NCBI GenBank assembly: GCA_022729235.1
Contig: JALDAJ010000001.1
Coordinates: 576,001-640,000 of the forward strand
DNA length: 64,000 nucleotides
Source: Candidatus Nanohalarchaeota archaeon
GTDB lineage: Archaea; Nanohalarchaeota; Nanosalinia; Nanosalinales; Nanosalinaceae
Reading direction: 5' to 3'
Shown here: positions 42,770-51,936 of the stretch, piece after piece
How the letters are laid out: each line of letters opens with the position of its first letter
Position numbering within the stretch: position 1 is the stretch's first letter
The notes under the pieces: model-generated
The model's input: the letters and a program-made list of their open reading frames with translations, nothing else
Databases searched by the model: none
Told to the model about the DNA's origin: nothing
Position numbers and translations under genes: made by a program

Positions 42770-44512
42770 TCAAAATTCTTTGAGGTCGTTTCCGTCCATG
42801 AAACCTTTGAGGCTCTTCTCTAACTCTTCAACATTTACTCTTACCTGTTCAGTGGAGTCCCTGTCCCGGAGAGTCACGGTCCCGTCTTCCAGGGTCTGGT
42901 GGTCCACGGTCGCGCATATCGGCGTACCGATCTCGTCCTGCCGCCTGTAACGGCGACCGATAGCGCCTGAATCATCATACTTCACGGAGAAACCGCTTTC
43001 TCTTAGGCTCCTGGCGACTTTTCGTGCGCGCTCTCCCATCCCGTCCTTATCCATCAATGGGAATACAGCCACTTCTACAGGTGCGACTTCCGCGGGTAAG
43101 CGGAGAACGGTTCTCTCCTCTCCATCTACTTCGTCTTCCTCAAGGTTATGCGCTAGAACCGTGTAGAGTATTCGGTCGACACCGAACGACGGTTCTACAG
43201 TTTCAGGCATGATATGTTCTCCGGTCTCCTCAACTTCTTTTCGTGTAAATCCTGTTTTCTCCACGGGAACATTTACAGTCTCGCCATCGATTTCCAAGCT
43301 GATGCTTTCCTGCTCCTCGAACCTCTCCGGTTCTTCCTCCGCGATTCTCCCGAGTTCGTCCGCGATATCTGAGGCGCGGTCACCGTATTCAGGTCCAAGG
43401 ACGCTCATGTCTGGACTGACGGTTGCTTTCTCCACGGTCTTGGGCTCGTCGTATGGCTTGAAAACAGTGAAGTCTTCGCCCGAGTGCTCCTGGTGCTTCT
43501 TGAGGTCGTAGCATCCTCTGTACGCGAAACCTGTGATTTCAATCCAGTCACCTCCGACTTCAGATTCGGCGTCCCAGCAGTCGCTCGCGTAGTGCGACCT
43601 CTCGTCCTCCAGGTGCTGCCGGAACCTGAACCGGTCCATATCGATACCTATCCGCTCGTACCACTTCTTTGAGATACCGAGATAGTATGCTATCCAGTCG
43701 CTCGCGACCACGCCGTTTTCGACTGCTTCCGCCACGGTCATCTCGAGTACTTCTCCGCCGTCTTTATCCTGCTCGTTGATAGGGTAAAGGCGGAGCTCGA
43801 CGTCTTCCACGTCCTCCATTTCCGGTTCGTCTTTTTCTGGATCGATAAAGAACTCCAGCTCTGCCTGCGTGAACTCTCTGACGCGGACAATCGATTTCCG
43901 CGGTGATATCTCGTTCCTGTAAGCCTTTCCTATCTGTGTAACCCCGAACGGCAGCTGGTTGCGGGCGTATTCTTTCCACTGAGGGAACTCGACGAAGATT
44001 CCCTGAGCTGTTTCAGGTCGTAAGTAGCCGGGTGAGGAATCTCCTGGACCGATGTTTGTGCCGAACATCAGGTTGAAATCGTCGACTTCCACGTCTGCCA
44101 GTTCCTCGCCGCAGTTCGGACACTGGAGGCTGTTTTCTTCGATTATCTCCATTATCCTATCGGTGGAGAAGCTCTCCGCCTCCTCGATATCCGTGTTATC
44201 CTCGACCAGATGGTCTGCCCTGATGGATTCGCCGCACTCGGGGCATTCTATTATCATGTCGTCGAAGGTCTCAAGGTGCCCGGATGCCTCGAACACGTCT
44301 TCAGGCATGATTGTCGGTGCTTCTATCTCCATGTTGCCTTCCTGGTAGGTGAACCGGTCTCTCCATACATCCTCCAGGTTTCTCTTCAAGGCGGTACCGT
44401 GGGGTCCGAACGTGTAGAAACCGGCTGTACCTCCGTAAATCTCATTGGAGGGAATAAAAAATCCGCGTCTCTTCGCCAGTTCTTTCAGGCTCTGTGTGGT
44501 ATTCTGGGTCAC
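42770..44512 (-). CDS. glyS: Glycyl-tRNA synthetase (alpha2 type)
   Basis: RRGF, YLRPETAQG, RNEISPR, REFTQAE, EPSFGVDR, GRRYRRQDEIG; start GTG 44512 after SD GAGGTG. Confidence 0.97.
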   Translation of the reverse strand: MTQNTTQSLKELAKRRGFFIPSNEIYGGTAGFYTFGPHGTALKRNLEDVWRDRFTYQEGNMEIEAPTIMPEDVFEASGHLETFDDMIIECPECGESIRADHLVEDNTDIEEAESFSTDRIMEIIEENSLQCPNCGEELADVEVDDFNLMFGTNIGPGDSSPGYLRPETAQGIFVEFPQWKEYARNQLPFGVTQIGKAYRNEISPRKSIVRVREFTQAELEFFIDPEKDEPEMEDVEDVELRLYPINEQDKDGGEVLEMTVAEAVENGVVASDWIAYYLGISKKWYERIGIDMDRFRFRQHLEDERSHYASDCWDAESEVGGDWIEITGFAYRGCYDLKKHQEHSGEDFTVFKPYDEPKTVEKATVSPDMSVLGPEYGDRASDIADELGRIAEEEPERFEEQESISLEIDGETVNVPVEKTGFTRKEVEETGEHIMPETVEPSFGVDRILYTVLAHNLEEDEVDGEERTVLRLPAEVAPVEVAVFPLMDKDGMGERARKVARSLRESGFSVKYDDSGAIGRRYRRQDEIGTPICATVDHQTLEDGTVTLRDRDSTEQVRVNVEELEKSLKGFMDGNDLKEF

Positions 44513-44674
44513 TTTTGACACCTCTGGAAAAGTTGTCGATTAGAAGCCTTAAAAACCGACAGGACGAAAGAGCTAGAACTGGTTAAAGGGTTATTCGAAA
44601 CACGTGAAGTGTTTCTCAACGCAACTTCCTGGAGAAAGCTGCGAGAGTCCAAAGTAGCCACCCTTGATTGACAT
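44509..44674 (-). promoter_or_regulatory. glyS leader ORF MSIKGGYFG... with putative +1 frameshift cassette
   Basis: ATG TCA ATC AAG GGT GGC TAC TTT GGA; 0-frame stop 44591; +1 frame open to TGA overlapping glyS GTG. Confidence 0.75.
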
Positions 44675-45985: not shown

Positions 45986-46152
45986 ATGCAGCAAGGTGGC
46001 TGTTTTTGGACTTTTGCATCTGAATGATTTAGACAGCAGTATTTCTATTCCGGGTGGATGTTTTTGGGCCATCTAGTCTTCTAAAGGACAGGTTACGCTT
46101 TTCCCTGAACTATCTCAGAATCTGCTCAGTAAGGGAGCTTTCATGGCTTTAA
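45986..46152 (+). promoter_or_regulatory. Tandem Trp leader with two GGCFW cassettes chained by +1 frames
   Basis: MQQGGCFWTFASE*; its +1 frame reads ...SISIPGGCFWAI*. Confidence 0.7.
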
Positions 46153-46294: not shown

Positions 46295-46369
46295 ATGACA
46301 AACGACACACAAGACGAAACACAGGCAGAAGCCCGACAGGGGGGATGTTTTTGGAGAACAAAATCTTGA
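46295..46369 (+). promoter_or_regulatory. Trp leader ORF MTNDTQDETQAEARQGGCFWRTKS*
   Basis: CAG GGG GGA TGT TTT TGG; TTTAAA box at about 46256. Confidence 0.7.
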
Positions 46370-46389
46370 AGAAGTTGTAAAGGGGGGCA

Positions 46390-46725
46390 TTGCTGGAGCA
46401 GGGTAGAGAAAGGGCTGTTTCGGTAATTGATAACTGTCTAACGATTGATGTAGACTCTTTCGATGAGGAAGTCTATTCAGAGGTTTTTGAGGTGCTGTTT
46501 TCTCCTGAAGAAGGATATCTAAGAGATGTTCCAGAGGACTTCCAATTCCGGCTCAGAAAAATATCGAGGTTCACTGTCGGCTGGGGTACGGAGTACTCGG
46601 AAACATATTCCAATGAACTAACTGGCCGTGATATCCGGGAGATGCAGAGGAAGGCGGTTGAAGAATCGTACACAGTTGGCTATTCCTCTGAAAAGTTCAT
46701 CGAACTGTACGAGGAGGTGATGTAG
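46390..46725 (+). CDS. Hypothetical protein upstream of trpS; true N-terminus uncertain
   Basis: Acidic ORF with TTG start; would continue the leader +1 frame if G6 at 46382-46387 were G5. Confidence 0.6.
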   Translation: MLEQGRERAVSVIDNCLTIDVDSFDEEVYSEVFEVLFSPEEGYLRDVPEDFQFRLRKISRFTVGWGTEYSETYSNELTGRDIREMQRKAVEESYTVGYSSEKFIELYEEVM

Positions 46726-46786: not shown

Positions 46787-47890
46787 ATGCCAGAGATAGA
46801 TCCGTGGGGAGACGTTGAAGTCGGAGAGTACCGTGAAAAGATGGAGAAGTTTGGTATCGAGCCGATCGAAGAGATAGCAGATAAGCTCCCTGACCACCGA
46901 TACATAAGAAGAGGGATAATCTTCGGTCACCGCGGGATGGACGAGTACCTGGACGCGCTCGACGACGGCGAGGACGTGGCGATGATAACTGGTATAATGC
47001 CGTCCGGCATGTTCCACCTCGGGCACAAGATAGTGGTCGACCAGGTGCTGATGTACCAGGAGATGGGCGCAGACGTAACTCTCACTGCGGCGGACATCGA
47101 AGCGCACAACACCCGCGGTATCTCGCTGGAAGACGCGCGTGAGATGGTTATCGAGCAGTACCTGACCAATTACGTCGCTCTGGGTCTCGACCTGGAGAAC
47201 GTTGATTTCTACTTCCAGAGCCAGGCAGGCAACGACCACCTTGCCCGCTCCAAACTTTTCGCGAAGCACCTGACACGGAACGAGATGGACGCCACCTACG
47301 GAGAACCAAGTCCTGGTAAGATAGCGTCCGCATTAATGCAGTACGCCGACATACTGAGACCGCAGTTCCCGGAGAACGGCGGACCGAAACCAACTGTTGT
47401 TCCTGTTGGTATCGACCAGGACCCTCACATAAGACTGACCCGGGAGGTCGCGCGGAAGGCGTCTCAAGACTTCTACAAGCCCGCATCCATTTACAACAAG
47501 TTCATGCGCGGGCTTCAGGGTGGGAAGATGTCGAGCAGCGATCCGAAGAGCTACATCGCGCTTACAGATTCTGTTGAAGAGGAGAAACAGAAGATCGACG
47601 AGGCGAAGACTGGTGGTCGTGACACGCTGGAGGAGCACCGTGAGAAAGGTGCGGACGTTGAAGAGGACATGGTCTTCGAACTACTTGCTTTCCACCTTAT
47701 CGAGGACGACTCCGAGCTTGAACGTATCCGTGAAGAGTATGAGTCGGGCGAGATGCTGTCCGGAGAACTCAAGCAGATAGCGAAGGAGAAACTGGAGGAG
47801 TTCCTCCTCGCGCATAAAGAGAGGAGAGAAGACGCGCGTGAAGAAGTCGAACAGTTCGTCGAGGAGAACGTAGAGTCAGAACTTGTTTAA
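46787..47890 (+). CDS. trpS: Tryptophanyl-tRNA synthetase
   Basis: FHLGH, VPVGIDQDPH, KMSSS, AKTGGR, GEMLSGELK. Confidence 0.96.
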   Translation: MPEIDPWGDVEVGEYREKMEKFGIEPIEEIADKLPDHRYIRRGIIFGHRGMDEYLDALDDGEDVAMITGIMPSGMFHLGHKIVVDQVLMYQEMGADVTLTAADIEAHNTRGISLEDAREMVIEQYLTNYVALGLDLENVDFYFQSQAGNDHLARSKLFAKHLTRNEMDATYGEPSPGKIASALMQYADILRPQFPENGGPKPTVVPVGIDQDPHIRLTREVARKASQDFYKPASIYNKFMRGLQGGKMSSSDPKSYIALTDSVEEEKQKIDEAKTGGRDTLEEHREKGADVEEDMVFELLAFHLIEDDSELERIREEYESGEMLSGELKQIAKEKLEEFLLAHKERREDAREEVEQFVEENVESELV

Positions 47891-47914
47891 GTCCGGCTCC
47901 AGTATTTCTGACTT

Positions 47915-48610
47915 ATGTTGCCCGAGTTGATACTGCGTGAGGAGGAAGAGGAGAACCTTCCTCTGCTTGCAGTTCTAGGTCTCGCATCAGGTCTGGCAGG
48001 ATTTATTGCTGCAAGAGCTCTTTTTCCATCGCAGATAGATCTTCTTACGGTGATTTTTGCCTCGATACCGCTTGTATACCCTCTCGTGACGTATTTCCTG
48101 GAGCGTGAGAACGAGTCGCGACCCCATCTCCCGGAGATACAGGTCTACGGTTCGATTTTCCTTGGAATGGCGGCAGCATTCTTTATCCTGGGCTTGTATA
48201 ATCCTGAGTTATTCTCATTGCAGAATGCTATTATAGGTGCTGCAGGGCATGCAGTCAATCCAGTATCCTTCACCACGGTCTTATCCAATAACCTGATGGT
48301 GTTCCTGGGGATTCTGGCTGTCGCGTCGATTATAGGGTCGGCAGGAGCCTTTATACTGACCTGGAATGCCTCAGTCTTAGGAGTCTTCATGGCAGGGCTT
48401 GTACGTGACTCTATTCTCATGCCGTTCGCCTACATCCCCCACGCGTCTCTGGAGATGGCAGGGTTCATAGTCGCAGGAGTTGCAGGTACAATGATCTCTG
48501 CCGCAGTCTACAGAGAGCATTTCGATAAGGATACATGGCTCGACCTCTCAAAGCTGGTCGCCACGGGTGTTGGACTGATAGTCATCGCGGCGGTGCTGGA
48601 GACTGCGTAG
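47915..48610 (+). CDS. SpoIIM-family membrane protein
   Basis: NNLMVF, WNASVLG, PHASLEMAG, AAVLE. Confidence 0.85.
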   Translation: MLPELILREEEEENLPLLAVLGLASGLAGFIAARALFPSQIDLLTVIFASIPLVYPLVTYFLERENESRPHLPEIQVYGSIFLGMAAAFFILGLYNPELFSLQNAIIGAAGHAVNPVSFTTVLSNNLMVFLGILAVASIIGSAGAFILTWNASVLGVFMAGLVRDSILMPFAYIPHASLEMAGFIVAGVAGTMISAAVYREHFDKDTWLDLSKLVATGVGLIVIAAVLETA

Positions 48611-48641
48611 ATATTAAAATCTGTGGTACAAGAAGAGAGTT

Positions 48642-48798
48642 ATGTCACCATCCGAAGCACAGGGAACACTGAAGGGTGGACGTTTTTTCCGCCTGTGAAA
48701 GGCAGATTAACAGCTCTATTTCTGGATTGGTTTTTTCGAGGTCTCGGACAGGTATCGCTCAGATATTAAAGTTTAATTTGGGAGGTGTAAACCTGTGA
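48642..48798 (+). promoter_or_regulatory. pheS leader ORF MSPSEAQGTLKGGRFFRL* with putative +1 frameshift cassette
   Basis: AAG GGT GGA CGT TTT TTC; 0-frame stop 48698; +1 frame open to TGA 48796-48798 overlapping pheS GTG. Confidence 0.75.
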
Positions 48799-50186
48799 GA
48801 CTTTCAAGCCAGTCAATACAGGTTCTGGAAGAACTGAGAGAACAGAGCCCACGCACGGTCGAAGATCTGGAAAAAGAGGGATACGACCAGTCGATGGTTC
48901 ACCGTGCCGCGATGGAACTTGAAGAAAAAGGAATTGTTAACTACAGGGAGGAGGAAGAGGTAGAATGGGTCATAACTCCTGCCGGCGAAGAAGTAATTCA
49001 AGAAGGCTCGCCCGAGCACCAGCTAATAGAGAGGCTTGCGGATGGAGCTGTACCGCTCTCCGAACTTGAAGATCTCGACCTGGATGTCGCGCTTGGAAAG
49101 GCGCGGGAGAAGGGATGGGTCCGTATCAAGGAGGGCGAGGTCTCGCTTACCGAACAGGGACGGCAGGGTCTCGGCTCGGACCGTGTTCAAAACAAGTTAA
49201 AGGACCAGGAATACGACGAAGAGGTCCGTGAGAGAGGGCTGGTCGCGCCGCAGGAAAGAACTGAACGAATACTGGATTTGACTGGTGAAGGAGAAGCCAT
49301 AGATACAGGAGAGCTAGGAGAGGAGTTCAACGTCGAGGCGCGGGTGAAAACACCGCGGACAGGTAAGAAACATTTCTACCGCGAGATAATGGACTACGCC
49401 CGCCGTGTGTGGAAAGACATGGGCTTCGAGGAGATGAGCGGTGACTACGTCACCTCCGGACTGATGAACTTCGACGCGCTTTACATCCCGCAAGACCACC
49501 CTGCCAGAGAGCTCCAGGACTCGTTCTTCATGGAGACTCCGGCGAAAACAGATTTATCCATTTATGGGGGAAAGGTGCAGGAAGTGAAAGACGTCCACGA
49601 GTTTGGTGGTGATGCCGGCGGTAAGGGATGGCAGTACGATTGGTCGCGTGAAGACGCGGAAAGAAACGTGCTGAGAACACATACAACTGACGTTTCCGCG
49701 AAGAGGCTCCACGAGATGGAGATTAACGAGGAGGAGCTACCGAAAAAGTTCTTCTGTCTTGGTAGAGCGTTCAGGAATGAGACGGTTGACAGGACTCACA
49801 ACGCAGAGTTCTACCAGACCGACGGTATCGTCGTAGGAAAAGACCTGAGCTTCCGCAACCTGAAAGGTTACCTGAGCGAGTTCTTCGAGAAGATGGGTTA
49901 CAGCGAGTTCCGGCTTATCCCCTCCTACTACCCCTACACGGAGATGAGCGTAGAGGTACAGGTCTGGGACGATGAAGACGAGGAATGGCTCGGGATGGGT
50001 GGAGCAGGTATGTTCCGCCCGGAAGTTGTGAAACCGATGCTGGGCTTCGAGGCGACAGTACTGGCATGGGGTCTAGGAATCGGGAGGATAGCCATGATAA
50101 ACGCCGAACTCAACGATATAAGAGAGCTTTACAGGAACGATATCGAAATCCTGGAACAGACACCTGTATGGAGGCCTGATCAGTAA
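48795..50186 (+). CDS. pheS: Phenylalanyl-tRNA synthetase alpha subunit
   Basis: NFDAL, PQDHPARELQD, LRTHTT, FRNE, YYPYTE, GAGMFRPEV. Confidence 0.97.
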   Translation: MRLSSQSIQVLEELREQSPRTVEDLEKEGYDQSMVHRAAMELEEKGIVNYREEEEVEWVITPAGEEVIQEGSPEHQLIERLADGAVPLSELEDLDLDVALGKAREKGWVRIKEGEVSLTEQGRQGLGSDRVQNKLKDQEYDEEVRERGLVAPQERTERILDLTGEGEAIDTGELGEEFNVEARVKTPRTGKKHFYREIMDYARRVWKDMGFEEMSGDYVTSGLMNFDALYIPQDHPARELQDSFFMETPAKTDLSIYGGKVQEVKDVHEFGGDAGGKGWQYDWSREDAERNVLRTHTTDVSAKRLHEMEINEEELPKKFFCLGRAFRNETVDRTHNAEFYQTDGIVVGKDLSFRNLKGYLSEFFEKMGYSEFRLIPSYYPYTEMSVEVQVWDDEDEEWLGMGGAGMFRPEVVKPMLGFEATVLAWGLGIGRIAMINAELNDIRELYRNDIEILEQTPVWRPDQ

Positions 50187-50299
50187 TGACGAAAACAAGT
50201 TTTCTTAAGCTCGAAAACCGTAGGTTTTCTGCAGTCGAGAAGACTCATAGAGTCTTCGACCTCGCCAACCACGAGGTGGTAGCCGAGTGCCTCACGTAA
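50184..50299 (+). repeat. Junction hairpin element with nested 51-nt insert; mini-ORF MTKTSFLKLENRRFSAVEKTHRVFDLANHEVVAECLT*
   Basis: Homologous to 5095-5147; TAATG overlap with pheS stop; supplies GAGGTGG SD for pheT. Confidence 0.75.
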
Positions 50300-51936
50300 A
50301 AATAGACAAGAGAGAGTTCGATGAACTCGTCGGTAGAGAGGTCGATGAAGAACTACTGTACGAGAAGGCTTCTTTCCTCGGCGTCCACTGGAACCATGAA
50401 GAGGGTCCAGAATGGGATGTAGAAGTCTATCCAAACCGACCTGATTTACTCAGTGTAGAAGGCTTGGCTCGTGCGTACAGAGGTTTCTTCGGCGTGAAGA
50501 CTGGGTCGGAGAGTTACACTCCTTCAGGAGGCTCCATTGAGGTCGATATCGATTCTTCAGTCGAGGAAGTAAGACCTCACATCGCCTGCGCAGTCGTGAG
50601 GGATGTTGATGTATCAGAAAAGATACTGAACGGCTGGATACAGCTACAGGAGAAGCTCCACGAGTCGATGGGGCGGAAGAGGGATAAACTGGCGATAGGT
50701 CTTCACGACCTTGGACAGGTTGAGCCACCGTTCACCTACAGGGCGGTGGAGCCGGATAGAGTATCATTCACTCCTCTCGAACATGACAGGGAGATGCAGT
50801 TAGGGGAGATACTGGATGAGCACGAGAAGGGGCAGGAATACGCGTGGATACTCGAAGACGAGGACAGATACCCGGTGATAGAAGATTCGGAAGGAAGAGT
50901 TATCTCTTTCCCTCCTATAATCAACAACCAGCTGACCGAGGTAACAGCCGGGACAAGCGACATATTCATCGACGTGACTGGAAAGGATCGCAGGACAGTA
51001 CTTAAAGTACTAAACATCCTCACCACGGCTCTCTCCGAGAGGGGAGGTTACGTGGAAACGGTACTGGTCAACGGAGAGGAGATGCCTGACCTGGAACCTG
51101 ATGAATGGAAACTAGACCCGGAATATTTCCGGGACATCTCTGGTCTCGAACTTGATGACAGTCAAATCATCGAACGGCTGGAGAAGATGAAGTTCGGGGC
51201 GGAGAAGAAAAACGATGCTATAGAAGTCAGGGTCCCGGCTTACAGGAACGACGTGATGCACCAGTACGACCTGATAGAGGACGTGGTGATCGCACACGGC
51301 TACGACAATATAGAACCGGAGATACCTGAGATCGACCAGGTCGCAGAGGAAAGACCTGTCGAGGATTACACGCGTATAATGAGAGATATACTACAGGGTA
51401 CGGGGGCGCTGGAAACTCATACCTATGTGCTCTCCAACCGCGAGAAACTGTTCCACAGGATGAACCTTGAGGGGGAAGAGATCGCAGAGATGTCGAATGC
51501 GTTGACAGAGGACTACACCGCGGTAAGAAACTGGCTCCTTCCCTCCTTGATGAATGTGCTTCGGAGGAACAGGCACCGATCCTACCCGCAGAAGTTCTTC
51601 GAGGTCGCCGATGTCTCGGTGCTGGACGACTCTGCAACAGGCGCGTCCAACAGGAGAAAGCTGGCGTACGTCCACTCAGGCAACAGCGCGGATTATACAG
51701 ATGTCCGGCAGGTACTCCAGGTGCTGGAACGTGATCTTGGAGTTGAGTTCCGTATAGATTCTGGATCAGGAAACTGCTTCGACCCTGAACGCTCCGGCGA
51801 CATCTACCTGGGAGAGGAAAAGATAGGTATTATAGGTGAGTTCTCCAGCAGTGTCATAGAGAACTGGGACCTGGACCGCGGCGTTGCGGGCTTCGAGCTG
51901 GACGTGGAGAAATTGCTGGAGATCATCAGGAACTAG
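50287..51936 (+). CDS. pheT: Phenylalanyl-tRNA synthetase beta subunit
   Basis: PNRPDLLSVEG, IQLQEKLH, SFPPIIN, DLIEDVVIAHGY. Confidence 0.97.
   Translation: MPHVKIDKREFDELVGREVDEELLYEKASFLGVHWNHEEGPEWDVEVYPNRPDLLSVEGLARAYRGFFGVKTGSESYTPSGGSIEVDIDSSVEEVRPHIACAVVRDVDVSEKILNGWIQLQEKLHESMGRKRDKLAIGLHDLGQVEPPFTYRAVEPDRVSFTPLEHDREMQLGEILDEHEKGQEYAWILEDEDRYPVIEDSEGRVISFPPIINNQLTEVTAGTSDIFIDVTGKDRRTVLKVLNILTTALSERGGYVETVLVNGEEMPDLEPDEWKLDPEYFRDISGLELDDSQIIERLEKMKFGAEKKNDAIEVRVPAYRNDVMHQYDLIEDVVIAHGYDNIEPEIPEIDQVAEERPVEDYTRIMRDILQGTGALETHTYVLSNREKLFHRMNLEGEEIAEMSNALTEDYTAVRNWLLPSLMNVLRRNRHRSYPQKFFEVADVSVLDDSATGASNRRKLAYVHSGNSADYTDVRQVLQVLERDLGVEFRIDSGSGNCFDPERSGDIYLGEEKIGIIGEFSSSVIENWDLDRGVAGFELDVEKLLEIIRN

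Follow-up and report, generated by a model that had tools for sequence, protein, structure and literature searches.

A candidate +1 frameshift leader with a cognate sensor codon upstream of pheS and related cassettes upstream of other aminoacyl-tRNA synthetase genes in Nanohaloarchaeota

Introduction

In this study, we analysed the short leader open reading frame (ORF) that precedes pheS in the genome of a Candidatus Nanohalarchaeota archaeon (GenBank assembly GCA_022729235.1). The 64,000-nt stretch of DNA that was analysed, hereafter the window, corresponds to G000:C1:576001-640000, where G000 denotes this genome, a single contig of 1,027,595 bases; coordinates without a prefix refer to the window. 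Comparison with related genomes indicates that the pheS leader is no chance ORF and that it belongs to a conserved cassette family of Nanohaloarchaeota. The cassette consists of a 5'-proximal ATG, a Shine-Dalgarno-like RGGUGG, four spacer bases, the codon UUU and one variable codon X, which is cognate to the downstream gene, and the +1 frame typically stays open up to the start of that gene. The reading that we favour, at a probability of about three in four, is that the pheS leader is a member of a set of modular sensor-codon +1 frameshift cassettes, in which a slip at a hungry codon would be followed by termination and re-initiation at the downstream gene. The regulation of aminoacyl-tRNA synthetase (aaRS) genes in archaea is largely unexplained, and to the best of our knowledge, the systems that control these genes in bacteria (T-boxes, leader-peptide attenuation and autogenous repression) have no described archaeal counterpart.

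Results

The variable codon is cognate to the downstream gene

An 18-nt block of the pheS leader recurs once in this genome, upstream of serS (G000:C1:544769-544786), where a tiny ORF reads MKGGRF-S at the place where the pheS leader reads KGGRF-F. When this genome was scanned for GGN GGN YGY TTY in short ORFs, the next codon was ACC (Thr) upstream of thrS, GTA (Val) upstream of valS, TCC (Ser) upstream of serS, TTC (Phe) upstream of pheS and, in three copies, TGG (Trp) upstream of trpS. The relatives added the pairs Tyr-tyrS, Gly-glyS, Lys-lysS and Cys-cysS, as well as Ile with a threonine-dehydratase-like gene (ilvA). For counting, the DNA of Nanohaloarchaeota was pooled and duplicates were removed by their 90-nt context, which gave 128 unique GGTGGMYGYTTT sites. 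A short 0-frame stretch contains 116 of these sites, and 66 of the 116 have a gene of a reference family, identified by Pfam/NCBIfam and by blast to those references, at most 700 nt downstream. X was cognate to the downstream gene in all 66 unique sites (thrS 15, glyS 12, serS 11, tyrS 11, valS 6, trpS 3, cysS 3, pheS 2, ilvA 2 and lysS 1), and when the codon labels were shuffled in 100,000 trials, the mean number of cognate matches was 10.2 and the maximum was 24. The other 50 short-frame sites, mostly with Trp (23) or Ile (10) as X, have no reference-family gene within 700 nt downstream; the genes behind them include a hisC-like aminotransferase, an M20 deacylase and ORFs without a family match, and a few of these sites are probably chance matches.

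All 66 sites have an upstream ATG in the frame of the X triplet, and in 42 of them the ATG stands exactly two codons before the GG. This constant frame bears on the idea of a T-box-like RNA element, in which the specifier triplet would pair directly with a tRNA anticodon and no translation would be involved. Such an element would have the same modular logic of one triplet per gene, and conservation at the level of nucleotides and not of the peptide would suit it well; however, it gives no reason for the relation of the triplet to an ATG or for the openness of the +1 frame, and no conserved structure was found. In Rfam scans, no T-box or other family was detected on five leader loci (L060, L033, L059, L035 and L036; E <= 1), and the stretch 47000-50500 of the window (E <= 10) contained no family, save one lncRNA chance match. 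A T-box and other known RNA classes were rejected on the basis of these scans of the pheS stretch and the five leader loci, and we consider any T-box-like mechanism very improbable.

The distribution of the cassette was examined by several scans. A 17-nt block with up to two mismatches gave 48 matches in 50 family genomes, compared with 3 for the reversed control, and GGTGGMYGYTTT gave 62 matches in 10 genomes, compared with 14 for the controls. The core RGGTGGAYGYTTT was detected in 57 of the 70 phylum genomes; 150 of its matches were listed and 64 more unlisted, compared with 15 for the reversed control. When all GTDB species were scanned, the 80 loci listed included 30 (31 sites) that were Nanohaloarchaeota or archaeal records assigned to that phylum, and records with cassette elements included Nanohaloarchaea, Nanohalobium, Nanosalina and Asbonarchaeum. 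The remaining 50 of the listed loci were scattered bacteria without cassette features or +1-path properties and were taken as chance matches. As judged from these scans, the cassette appears to be largely confined to Nanohaloarchaeota.

The +1 frame leads to the gene start

Stop positions were scored in the 60 sites with a definable gene start (59 for the -1 frame). The first stop in the +1 frame lies within 12 nt of the gene start in 52 of the 60 sites, and 17 of these are exact NTGA overlaps, compared with 0/60 for the 0 frame and 3/59 for the -1 frame. The first stop is reached after a median of 106 nt in the +1 frame, 36 nt in the 0 frame and 56 nt in the -1 frame, and in 61 of 66 sites neither of the other frames is as long as the +1 frame. 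The manner in which the +1 frame meets the gene varies among the classes. For example, serS cassettes mostly end with ATGCTTGA (8 of the 11 listed), in tyrS cassettes the +1 stop mostly lies 4-16 nt before the ATG within a Shine-Dalgarno-like AGGTAGATC, and several Trp cassettes are direct fusions, whose +1 frame passes into the downstream protein without a stop. At pheS, the geometry expected for coupling is present, with gTGA on the GTG and GGAGGTG at the optimal distance of -9.

The proposed stimulator and slippery codon, and the alternatives without a frameshift

The cassette is conserved at the nucleotide level. The Gly codons are always GGU GGA/C, the position that encodes Arg or Cys is YGY, and the alternation of R and C in the leader peptides results from C/U transitions in the DNA. 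RGGUGG is complementary to UCACCU of the 16S rRNA 3' end of this genome (..GGATCACCTCCA), and GGGUGG of the pheS leader can form six base pairs including one G.U; the variants GGUGAC and AGUGAU are complementary to it as well, in an unchanged register. The U of GGUG is located 7 nt before UUU in the cassettes, compared with an optimum of 9-10 nt at real starts genome-wide, and in the Shine-Dalgarno sequence of pheS itself it is located 9 nt before GTG, at the genome-wide optimum of -9/-10. The spacing of the putative stimulator is fixed, 2-3 nt less than at real starts and more than the 3-nt spacer of prfB (RF2). By analogy with the RF2 frameshift site, this geometry would fit a stimulator that is slightly too close to the P site, which a forward slip would relieve. 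The slippery codon UUU is invariant in the family, except for GUU in Leu-type cassettes, and the P-site tRNA can re-pair in the +1 frame on UUU when X begins with U (Phe, Ser, Trp, Tyr and Cys), which includes the pheS copy. Transcriptional slippage on the T run was rejected, as most classes have only T3-T5.

The same stimulator gives rise to an alternative without any frameshift, namely two overlapping leader ORFs, in which the +1 ORF would start at the GUG in GGUGG and be coupled to the synthetase gene, while translation or stalling in the 0 frame would modulate it. In its favour, the +1 frame of nearly every cassette contains this GUG, and the U is generally irreplaceable: a stimulator without the U (RGGVGGAYGYTTT) gave 33 matches against 35 for the controls, most of them inside genes, and only two were real cassettes. 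The +1 frame also reads the variable positions as GAY (Asp, synonymous) and GYU (Val/Ala, conservative) where the 0 frame reads Arg/Cys, and the ORF listing of the window includes a +1-frame ORF at 48676-48798. However, the two real cassettes without the U, which are the third Trp cassette of this genome (W3, at 46340) and L294 of genome G015, are clear ones; both have GGGGGA as the stimulator and therefore no GUG in the +1 frame. The GUG of MK-type leaders is 7 nt away from the 5' end and has no Shine-Dalgarno sequence at a distance that could serve it. If a ribosome stalled at X, it would also occlude the GUG, 8 nt upstream of the P-site codon, so that starvation would lower the expression of the synthetase, which is the wrong sign for this alternative, and the invariant UUU directly before X is left unexplained. 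We regard a GUG start without a frameshift as improbable.

A stalling-only sensor is also conceivable, in which a pause at the cognate codon would alter RNA folding or transcription termination (attenuation or erm-type unmasking) and the frame would remain unchanged. Short leader ORFs with cognate codons before amino-acid genes are a hallmark of attenuation, the T6 runs of the pheS copy at 48683-48688 and 48731-48736 could be archaeal oligo-T terminators, and the valS leaders show pairing around X in two forms (GGCCG/CGGCC and GGACG/CGUCC). However, in local folding, 74 leaders scored no better than shuffled sequences (mean of -9.52 and -9.13 kcal/mol, respectively), alifold on the Tyr, Ser, Thr and Gly classes gave no consistent conserved structure and no terminator/antiterminator pair, and the T runs range from T3 to T6 among the classes. 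In addition, stalling alone would account neither for a path to the gene start that is open in the +1 frame only nor for the 3n+1 phasing of tandem cassettes (see below), and we judge it to be quite improbable. In comparison, a +1 slip on UUU is the simplest account, because it explains the cognate codon in the 0 frame, the invariant UUU with its stimulator and the +1 path to the gene start.

The pheS locus and its leader

The order of genes at the locus is glyS (minus strand), PGK, trpS, a gene for a SpoIIM-family membrane protein, a 184-nt spacer, pheS and pheT. On the plus strand, the predicted leader transcript begins at a promoter, P1, with a TATA box ATATTAAAA at 48611-48619, whose ATTAAA begins 29 nt before the leader ATG at 48642. 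The leader ORF (48642-48698, with TGA at 48696-48698) encodes MSPSEAQGTLKGGRFFRL* in the 0 frame, and homologous leaders are found in the congener G001 and on the metagenome contigs L336 and L350. Within this ORF, the putative stimulator GGGUGG, recognized by its complementarity to the 16S 3' end, occupies 48674-48679 and is followed by the spacer at 48680-48683, which consists of A and the E-site codon CGU (YGY in most cassettes according to position-wise counts). The putative slippery P-site codon UUU, at the position that is invariant across the family, occupies 48684-48686, and the putative sensor codon UUC (Phe), cognate to pheS, occupies 48687-48689. The +1 path (48688-48798) has 36 sense codons from TCC at 48688 and ends with TGA at 48796-48798 on the pheS GTG at 48795. 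A second T6 run, a possible oligo-T terminator, is located within this path at 48731-48736 in this genome only and is absent in G001, L336 and L350. Further downstream lie the TATA box ATATTAAAG of P2 (48765-48773), the predicted promoter of pheS itself, with its hexamer at -30/-29 from the GTG, and the sequence GGAGGTG (48781-48787), which ends 7 nt before the GTG and would serve as the Shine-Dalgarno sequence of pheS on leadered transcripts. The pheS gene (48795-50186) encodes the archaeal-type alpha subunit of 463 aa (Pfam PF01409, 264 bits), and pheT (50287-51936) encodes the beta subunit of 549 aa (PF17759 and PF03484). The 100-nt gap between them is bridged by a mini-ORF at 50186-50299, whose start overlaps the pheS stop (TAATG) and whose end lies 13 nt within pheT.

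A preliminary description of the window, made from the letters alone, had placed the box, the ATG and the leader stop at 48611, 48642 and 48698, had traced 36 sense codons in the +1 frame to a TGA overlapping the pheS GTG, and had pointed out GGAGGTG upstream of it; the sequence and its translation agree with all of these, and the Pfam matches bear out the gene identities that it gave for pheS and pheT. The mini-ORF that it had proposed as a bridge from pheS to pheT exists as well, and analogous mini-ORFs with start/stop overlaps at both ends span the pheS-pheT gap in the relatives' loci L011 and L018. It had also spoken of an upstream ORF containing FF. Two Phe codons are indeed present, although the leader is not rich in Phe, and only the second codon (UUC) would be the sensor; the first (UUU at 48684-48686) is the putative slippery codon of every cassette.

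As the preliminary description had suggested, the upstream regions of pheS were compared among relatives, using 30 pheS loci from species representatives. A long spacer with a leader was present in only two of them, this genome and G001. In the others, the SpoIIM stop is directly followed by a TATA box and, about 22 nt further on, by the pheS GTG; the proximal box ATATTAAAG of this leaderless-locus layout is also present in the window. G001 keeps the leader as MTAGTRLPTGPTDYKGGCFFRG*, with the 21-nt block (one mismatch), the open +1 frame and the gTGA ending. A scan of metagenomes revealed two further SpoIIM-leader-pheS-pheT loci, on L336 and L350, each with a P1 box, a KGGCFF leader, a P2 box, (G)AGGTG and a +1 frame ending with gTGA on pheS, and (G)AGGTG before pheS is retained in G001 and both contigs. 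All four pheS cassettes end their +1 frame on the pheS GTG, with open +1 paths of 36, 22, 33 and 36 codons that are specific to the leader-bearing loci, while the identity of pheS is 59-75%. The rarity of the leader among pheS loci (2/30) might suggest a chance spacer ORF without function, but the cognate-codon and +1-frame statistics and the shuffles refute this, and the pheS cassette is kept in four lineages; we give a chance ORF next to no credence. The core of the preliminary description, in which a slippery U run precedes a Phe codon and a shortage of Phe-tRNA would cause a +1 slip, termination on the pheS start and re-initiation, fits these comparative results well, with 66/66 cognate codons and 52/60 +1 frames reaching the gene start.

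The comparison also points to two promoters. A TATA-like hexamer is located at -32 to -26 in 25 of the 30 pheS loci, including the leader-free ones, and across the genome, such hexamers are most frequent at -29/-28 from ORF starts, as is typical of leaderless mRNA. Upstream of the leader ATGs of the 66 cassettes, TATA-like boxes are clustered at -32 to -28. In the window, ATTAAA is found at -29 of the leader ATG and at -30 of the pheS GTG; since both match the leaderless distance, two promoters are predicted, P1 for the leader and P2 for pheS. Because pheS has its own TATA box, the leader could only add to a basal, leader-independent expression. The earlier proposal that a shortage of Phe-tRNA switches on pheS should be modified in this sense: its core idea fits the comparative data, whereas the leader would supplement basal expression only.

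Several further observations were made on the spacers of these loci. The cores of the pheS (48672-48692) and serS cassettes differ by one extra T in the T run, which changes TCC (Ser) into TTC (Phe), and the pheS cassette, which is found in few lineages, may derive from a serS copy. A repeat or mobile element was rejected, as a blast search with the spacer against the whole genome returned only the 18-nt serS match. A tRNA scan detected no tRNA in the pheS spacer and none in the cysS spacer of L164, which looks tRNA-like by eye. Short hairpin repeats occur in longer spacers, such as GAAAAC..GTTTTC in the pheS-pheT gap (50187-50286) and GAAACTTCTGnGAAGTTTC-like pairs in the long glyS and serS leaders (spacers of L070, L079 and L100); they look like small inserted elements that are spanned by the open +1 frame or by the bridging mini-ORF. 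In L350, pheS aligns in two pieces (residues 1-114 and 178-462), suggesting a frameshift, an insertion or an assembly fault.

Other cassettes in the window and the genome

Starting from the genes, we identified 15 aaRS genes of this genome with four Pfam models and inspected the upstream regions of the ten for which no cassette was known until then. Four variant cassettes were found that the motif patterns had missed, and all four have a cognate codon: GGT GGC TAC TTT GGA upstream of glyS, GGT GGA CAT GTT CTA upstream of leuS, GGT GAC TGC TTT AAG upstream of lysS and AGT GAT CGT TTT TGT upstream of cysS. The number of cassette-bearing aaRS genes in this genome is nine. No cassette was seen upstream of tyrS, ileS, aspS, hisS and proS of this genome by eye and in the +1-coupling test; the start of metS is unclear, and alaS, argS, gluS and asnS were outside the upstream survey. 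The glyS cassette lies in the window on the minus strand (44509-44674, with the ATG at 44674) and reads AAG GGT GGC TAC TTT GGA, with a spacer that is not YGY and Gly as X. Its +1 path of 46 codons leads to TGA at 44511-44509, which overlaps the glyS GTG at 44512. The gene was identified by NCBIfam TIGR00389 (660 bits), and its true start is probably 44512 and not the first GTG at 44521, because the +1 path ends on the former.

Between PGK and trpS there are three Trp cassettes on the plus strand. The first two are in tandem (45986-46152): W1 has its leader ATG at 45986 (GGCF-W), and the motif of W2 is at 46053. They are spaced by 58 nt, which is 3n+1, so that W2 is in the +1 frame of W1; the double-shifted frame of W1/W2 ends at 46150-46152 with no gene behind it. 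Tandem pairs were spaced by 3n+1 in four of four cases, and owing to this spacing, the second sensor would be read only after a first slip. The third cassette, W3 (46295-46406, MTNDTQDETQAEARQGGCFWRTKS*, with the motif at 46340), is located upstream of an ORF of 111 aa (46390-46725) and of trpS (46787-47890). In G001 (L073), G012 and G046, the +1 frame of W3 runs for 337-376 nt through the homologue of the 111-aa ORF and ends 29 nt before trpS, while in this genome it stops after 17 codons and the ORF goes on in another frame past a G6 run (AAAGGGGGGC, about 46380); this frame break could be an assembly indel or a second shift. A paralogous Trp locus outside the window (G000:C1:831474-832338, L066) is laid out in the same way and contains two cassettes and a GDCFW remnant, an AT-rich gap and a leader, MTNSMQAKIAEAQKGGCFW, which precedes a 155-aa ORF with no NCBIfam match.

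Cassettes of other classes were also observed before genes other than those for synthetases. The Ile cassettes (G000:C1:457145, which is L063, and L080, L095 and L294) have a second in-frame motif, KGGRV-L (GTT CTG), which resembles the Leu-type cassette of leuS; they precede ilvA-like genes in relatives (L093 and L217) and small ORFs without a family match in this genome. Phe cassettes upstream of genes other than pheS (L051, L052/L085, L318, L329 and L353) precede ORFs of 365-422 aa, which have no match or a weak match resembling glutamate-cysteine ligase, and in L329 two Phe cassettes are in tandem, 64 nt apart. In addition, a conserved element resembling yCAAAACC(T)T..TTTAAA is located about 30-45 nt before the starts of many aaRS genes, namely serS, thrS, tyrS, glyS, lysS, valS, hisS and proS (for example, L060:1470-1490), the last two of which lack a cassette. 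This element showed no general positional enrichment upstream of genes genome-wide and no 16S rRNA complement; possible explanations are a shared operator and an extended BRE.

Discussion

As proposed here, the transcript would start at the leader's own TATA box (P1), with the leader ATG at or near the 5' end. The ribosome would read a few codons until UUU enters the P site, when RGGUGG, 7 nt upstream, would be paired with the 3' tail of the 16S rRNA and the A site would hold a single codon for the amino acid of the downstream enzyme, which is UUC (Phe) before pheS. When the charged tRNA is plentiful, X would be read and the 0 frame would end 2-14 codons further on, at least 43 nt from the gene start. 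When it is scarce, the P-site tRNA-Phe would slip by +1, and the ribosome would follow the otherwise meaningless open +1 frame, terminate on or beside the gene start (gTGA on pheS) and re-initiate with the help of the nearby Shine-Dalgarno sequence, so that more synthetase would be made. In the 3n+1 tandems, two successive slips would be required, giving a steeper switch.

Several points weigh against this mechanism or against the strength of its evidence. First, the site counts are inflated by the kinship of the genomes, and the independent units are about ten gene classes; even with these units, the cognate-codon match is still far beyond chance. Second, the motif positions were fixed by the search patterns in most sites, and to that extent their conservation is by construction, while the mismatch-tolerant 17-nt scan, the GGN GGN YGY TTY scan of this genome and the variants found from the gene side were not built on these patterns. 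Third, the pairing is not uniform: with sensor codons starting with A or G, for which the +1 triplet is UUA or UUG, and with the Leu-type GUU, only two of three bases can re-pair, and there are 4 nt from the last paired base of the stimulator to UUU, compared with 3 nt for RF2. The GUG within the stimulator of nearly all cassettes, whose U is not replaceable in general, leaves some probability for an internal start. Finally, some points concern pheS itself. Much of its expression may bypass the leader through P2, which is conserved in leader-free relatives, and the co-transcription of the leader with pheS from P1 is presumed; the T6 run at 48731-48736 inside the +1 path could terminate P1 transcripts in this genome. 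A search for sequencing runs containing this DNA returned three DNA runs from one soda-lake study and no RNA run. Moreover, pheS starts with GTGA in 20 of 22 family loci, so a TGA on the start pre-exists without a leader.

Compared with known systems, the proposed cassette shares individual features with several of them. One is the autoregulatory +1 programmed frameshift of prfB, the gene for bacterial release factor 2, which also has an internal Shine-Dalgarno-like element near a slippery P-site codon, an A-site codon that is slow when the gene's own product is scarce (slow decoding is presumed in our case) and a productive shifted frame; some Trp cassettes even fuse the +1 frame to a protein as prfB does. 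In contrast to prfB, in which the sensor is a stop codon read by the protein product, the sensor here would be a sense codon read by aminoacyl-tRNA; the cassette forms a separate leader ORF, mostly with an NTGA overlap suited to termination-reinitiation, in an archaeal host, and it is modular, with about eleven amino acids addressed by one-codon exchange and a longer stimulator spacing. In hungry-codon +1 frameshifting, as at the rare-tRNA sites of yeast Ty1/Ty3 and in starved E. coli, the P-site tRNA likewise slips while the A site awaits a scarce aminoacyl-tRNA, but there the product is a structural fusion protein or the system is a laboratory construct, and we know of no hungry-codon frameshift that acts as a feedback sensor for the enzyme charging the scarce tRNA. 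Leader-peptide attenuation (E. coli pheST, pheA, trp and his) also employs a short leader ORF with cognate codons, through which the ribosome reports charged tRNA; in the present cassettes, however, there is one sensor codon and not a run, no terminator/antiterminator was found, and the proposed readout is translational, by frame change and coupling. The T-box riboswitches of Gram-positive bacteria are portable elements before aaRS and amino-acid genes as well, with specificity from one triplet, but they bind tRNA without a ribosome; here, no Rfam family was found on the leader loci scanned, and the triplet lies in the ATG frame in all 66 sites. An upstream-ORF frameshift on elongation defects was described for C. 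elegans zip-2 (PMC11831180); it differs in being a eukaryotic, general sensor of elongation stress that is not amino-acid-specific and does not extend to a gene family. A review of archaeal recoding from 2021 (PMC8211752) covers 'hungry' frameshifting; in the passages considered, it reports only one established programmed frameshift in cellular archaea, a -1 shift in one gene, and no synthetase leader. Our full-text literature searches, with supplementary files outside their scope, found no description of frameshift sensors in aaRS leaders. The parts (hungry-codon slippage, a Shine-Dalgarno-like stimulator and termination-reinitiation) are known, while their combination is not.

Conclusion

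In conclusion, we think it likely that Nanohaloarchaeota use the translating ribosome as an amino-acid-specific sensor bank, in which one portable +1 cassette has been re-targeted by the exchange of a single codon upstream of at least ten aaRS genes (Phe, Ser, Thr, Val, Trp, Tyr, Gly, Lys, Cys and Leu). The cassette is also located before a threonine-dehydratase-like gene (Ile) and before many genes without an assigned function, mostly with Trp or Ile sensors. If this is true, sense-codon hungry frameshifting would here serve feedback control across a regulon for the first time, and cellular archaea would have their first widespread programmed frameshift system. The cassette family would represent a new class of frameshift control that is family-wide and sequence-defined, with a code of one codon per amino acid and predictions that are testable gene by gene. 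A compact, re-targetable sensor of amino acids or tRNA charging could also be of use for engineering in archaeal and other systems. Nanohaloarchaeota are host-dependent, and the genes behind the Trp and Ile cassettes would be candidates for amino-acid acquisition in such cells. In this way, the cassettes could reveal how Nanohaloarchaeota sense their amino-acid supply.

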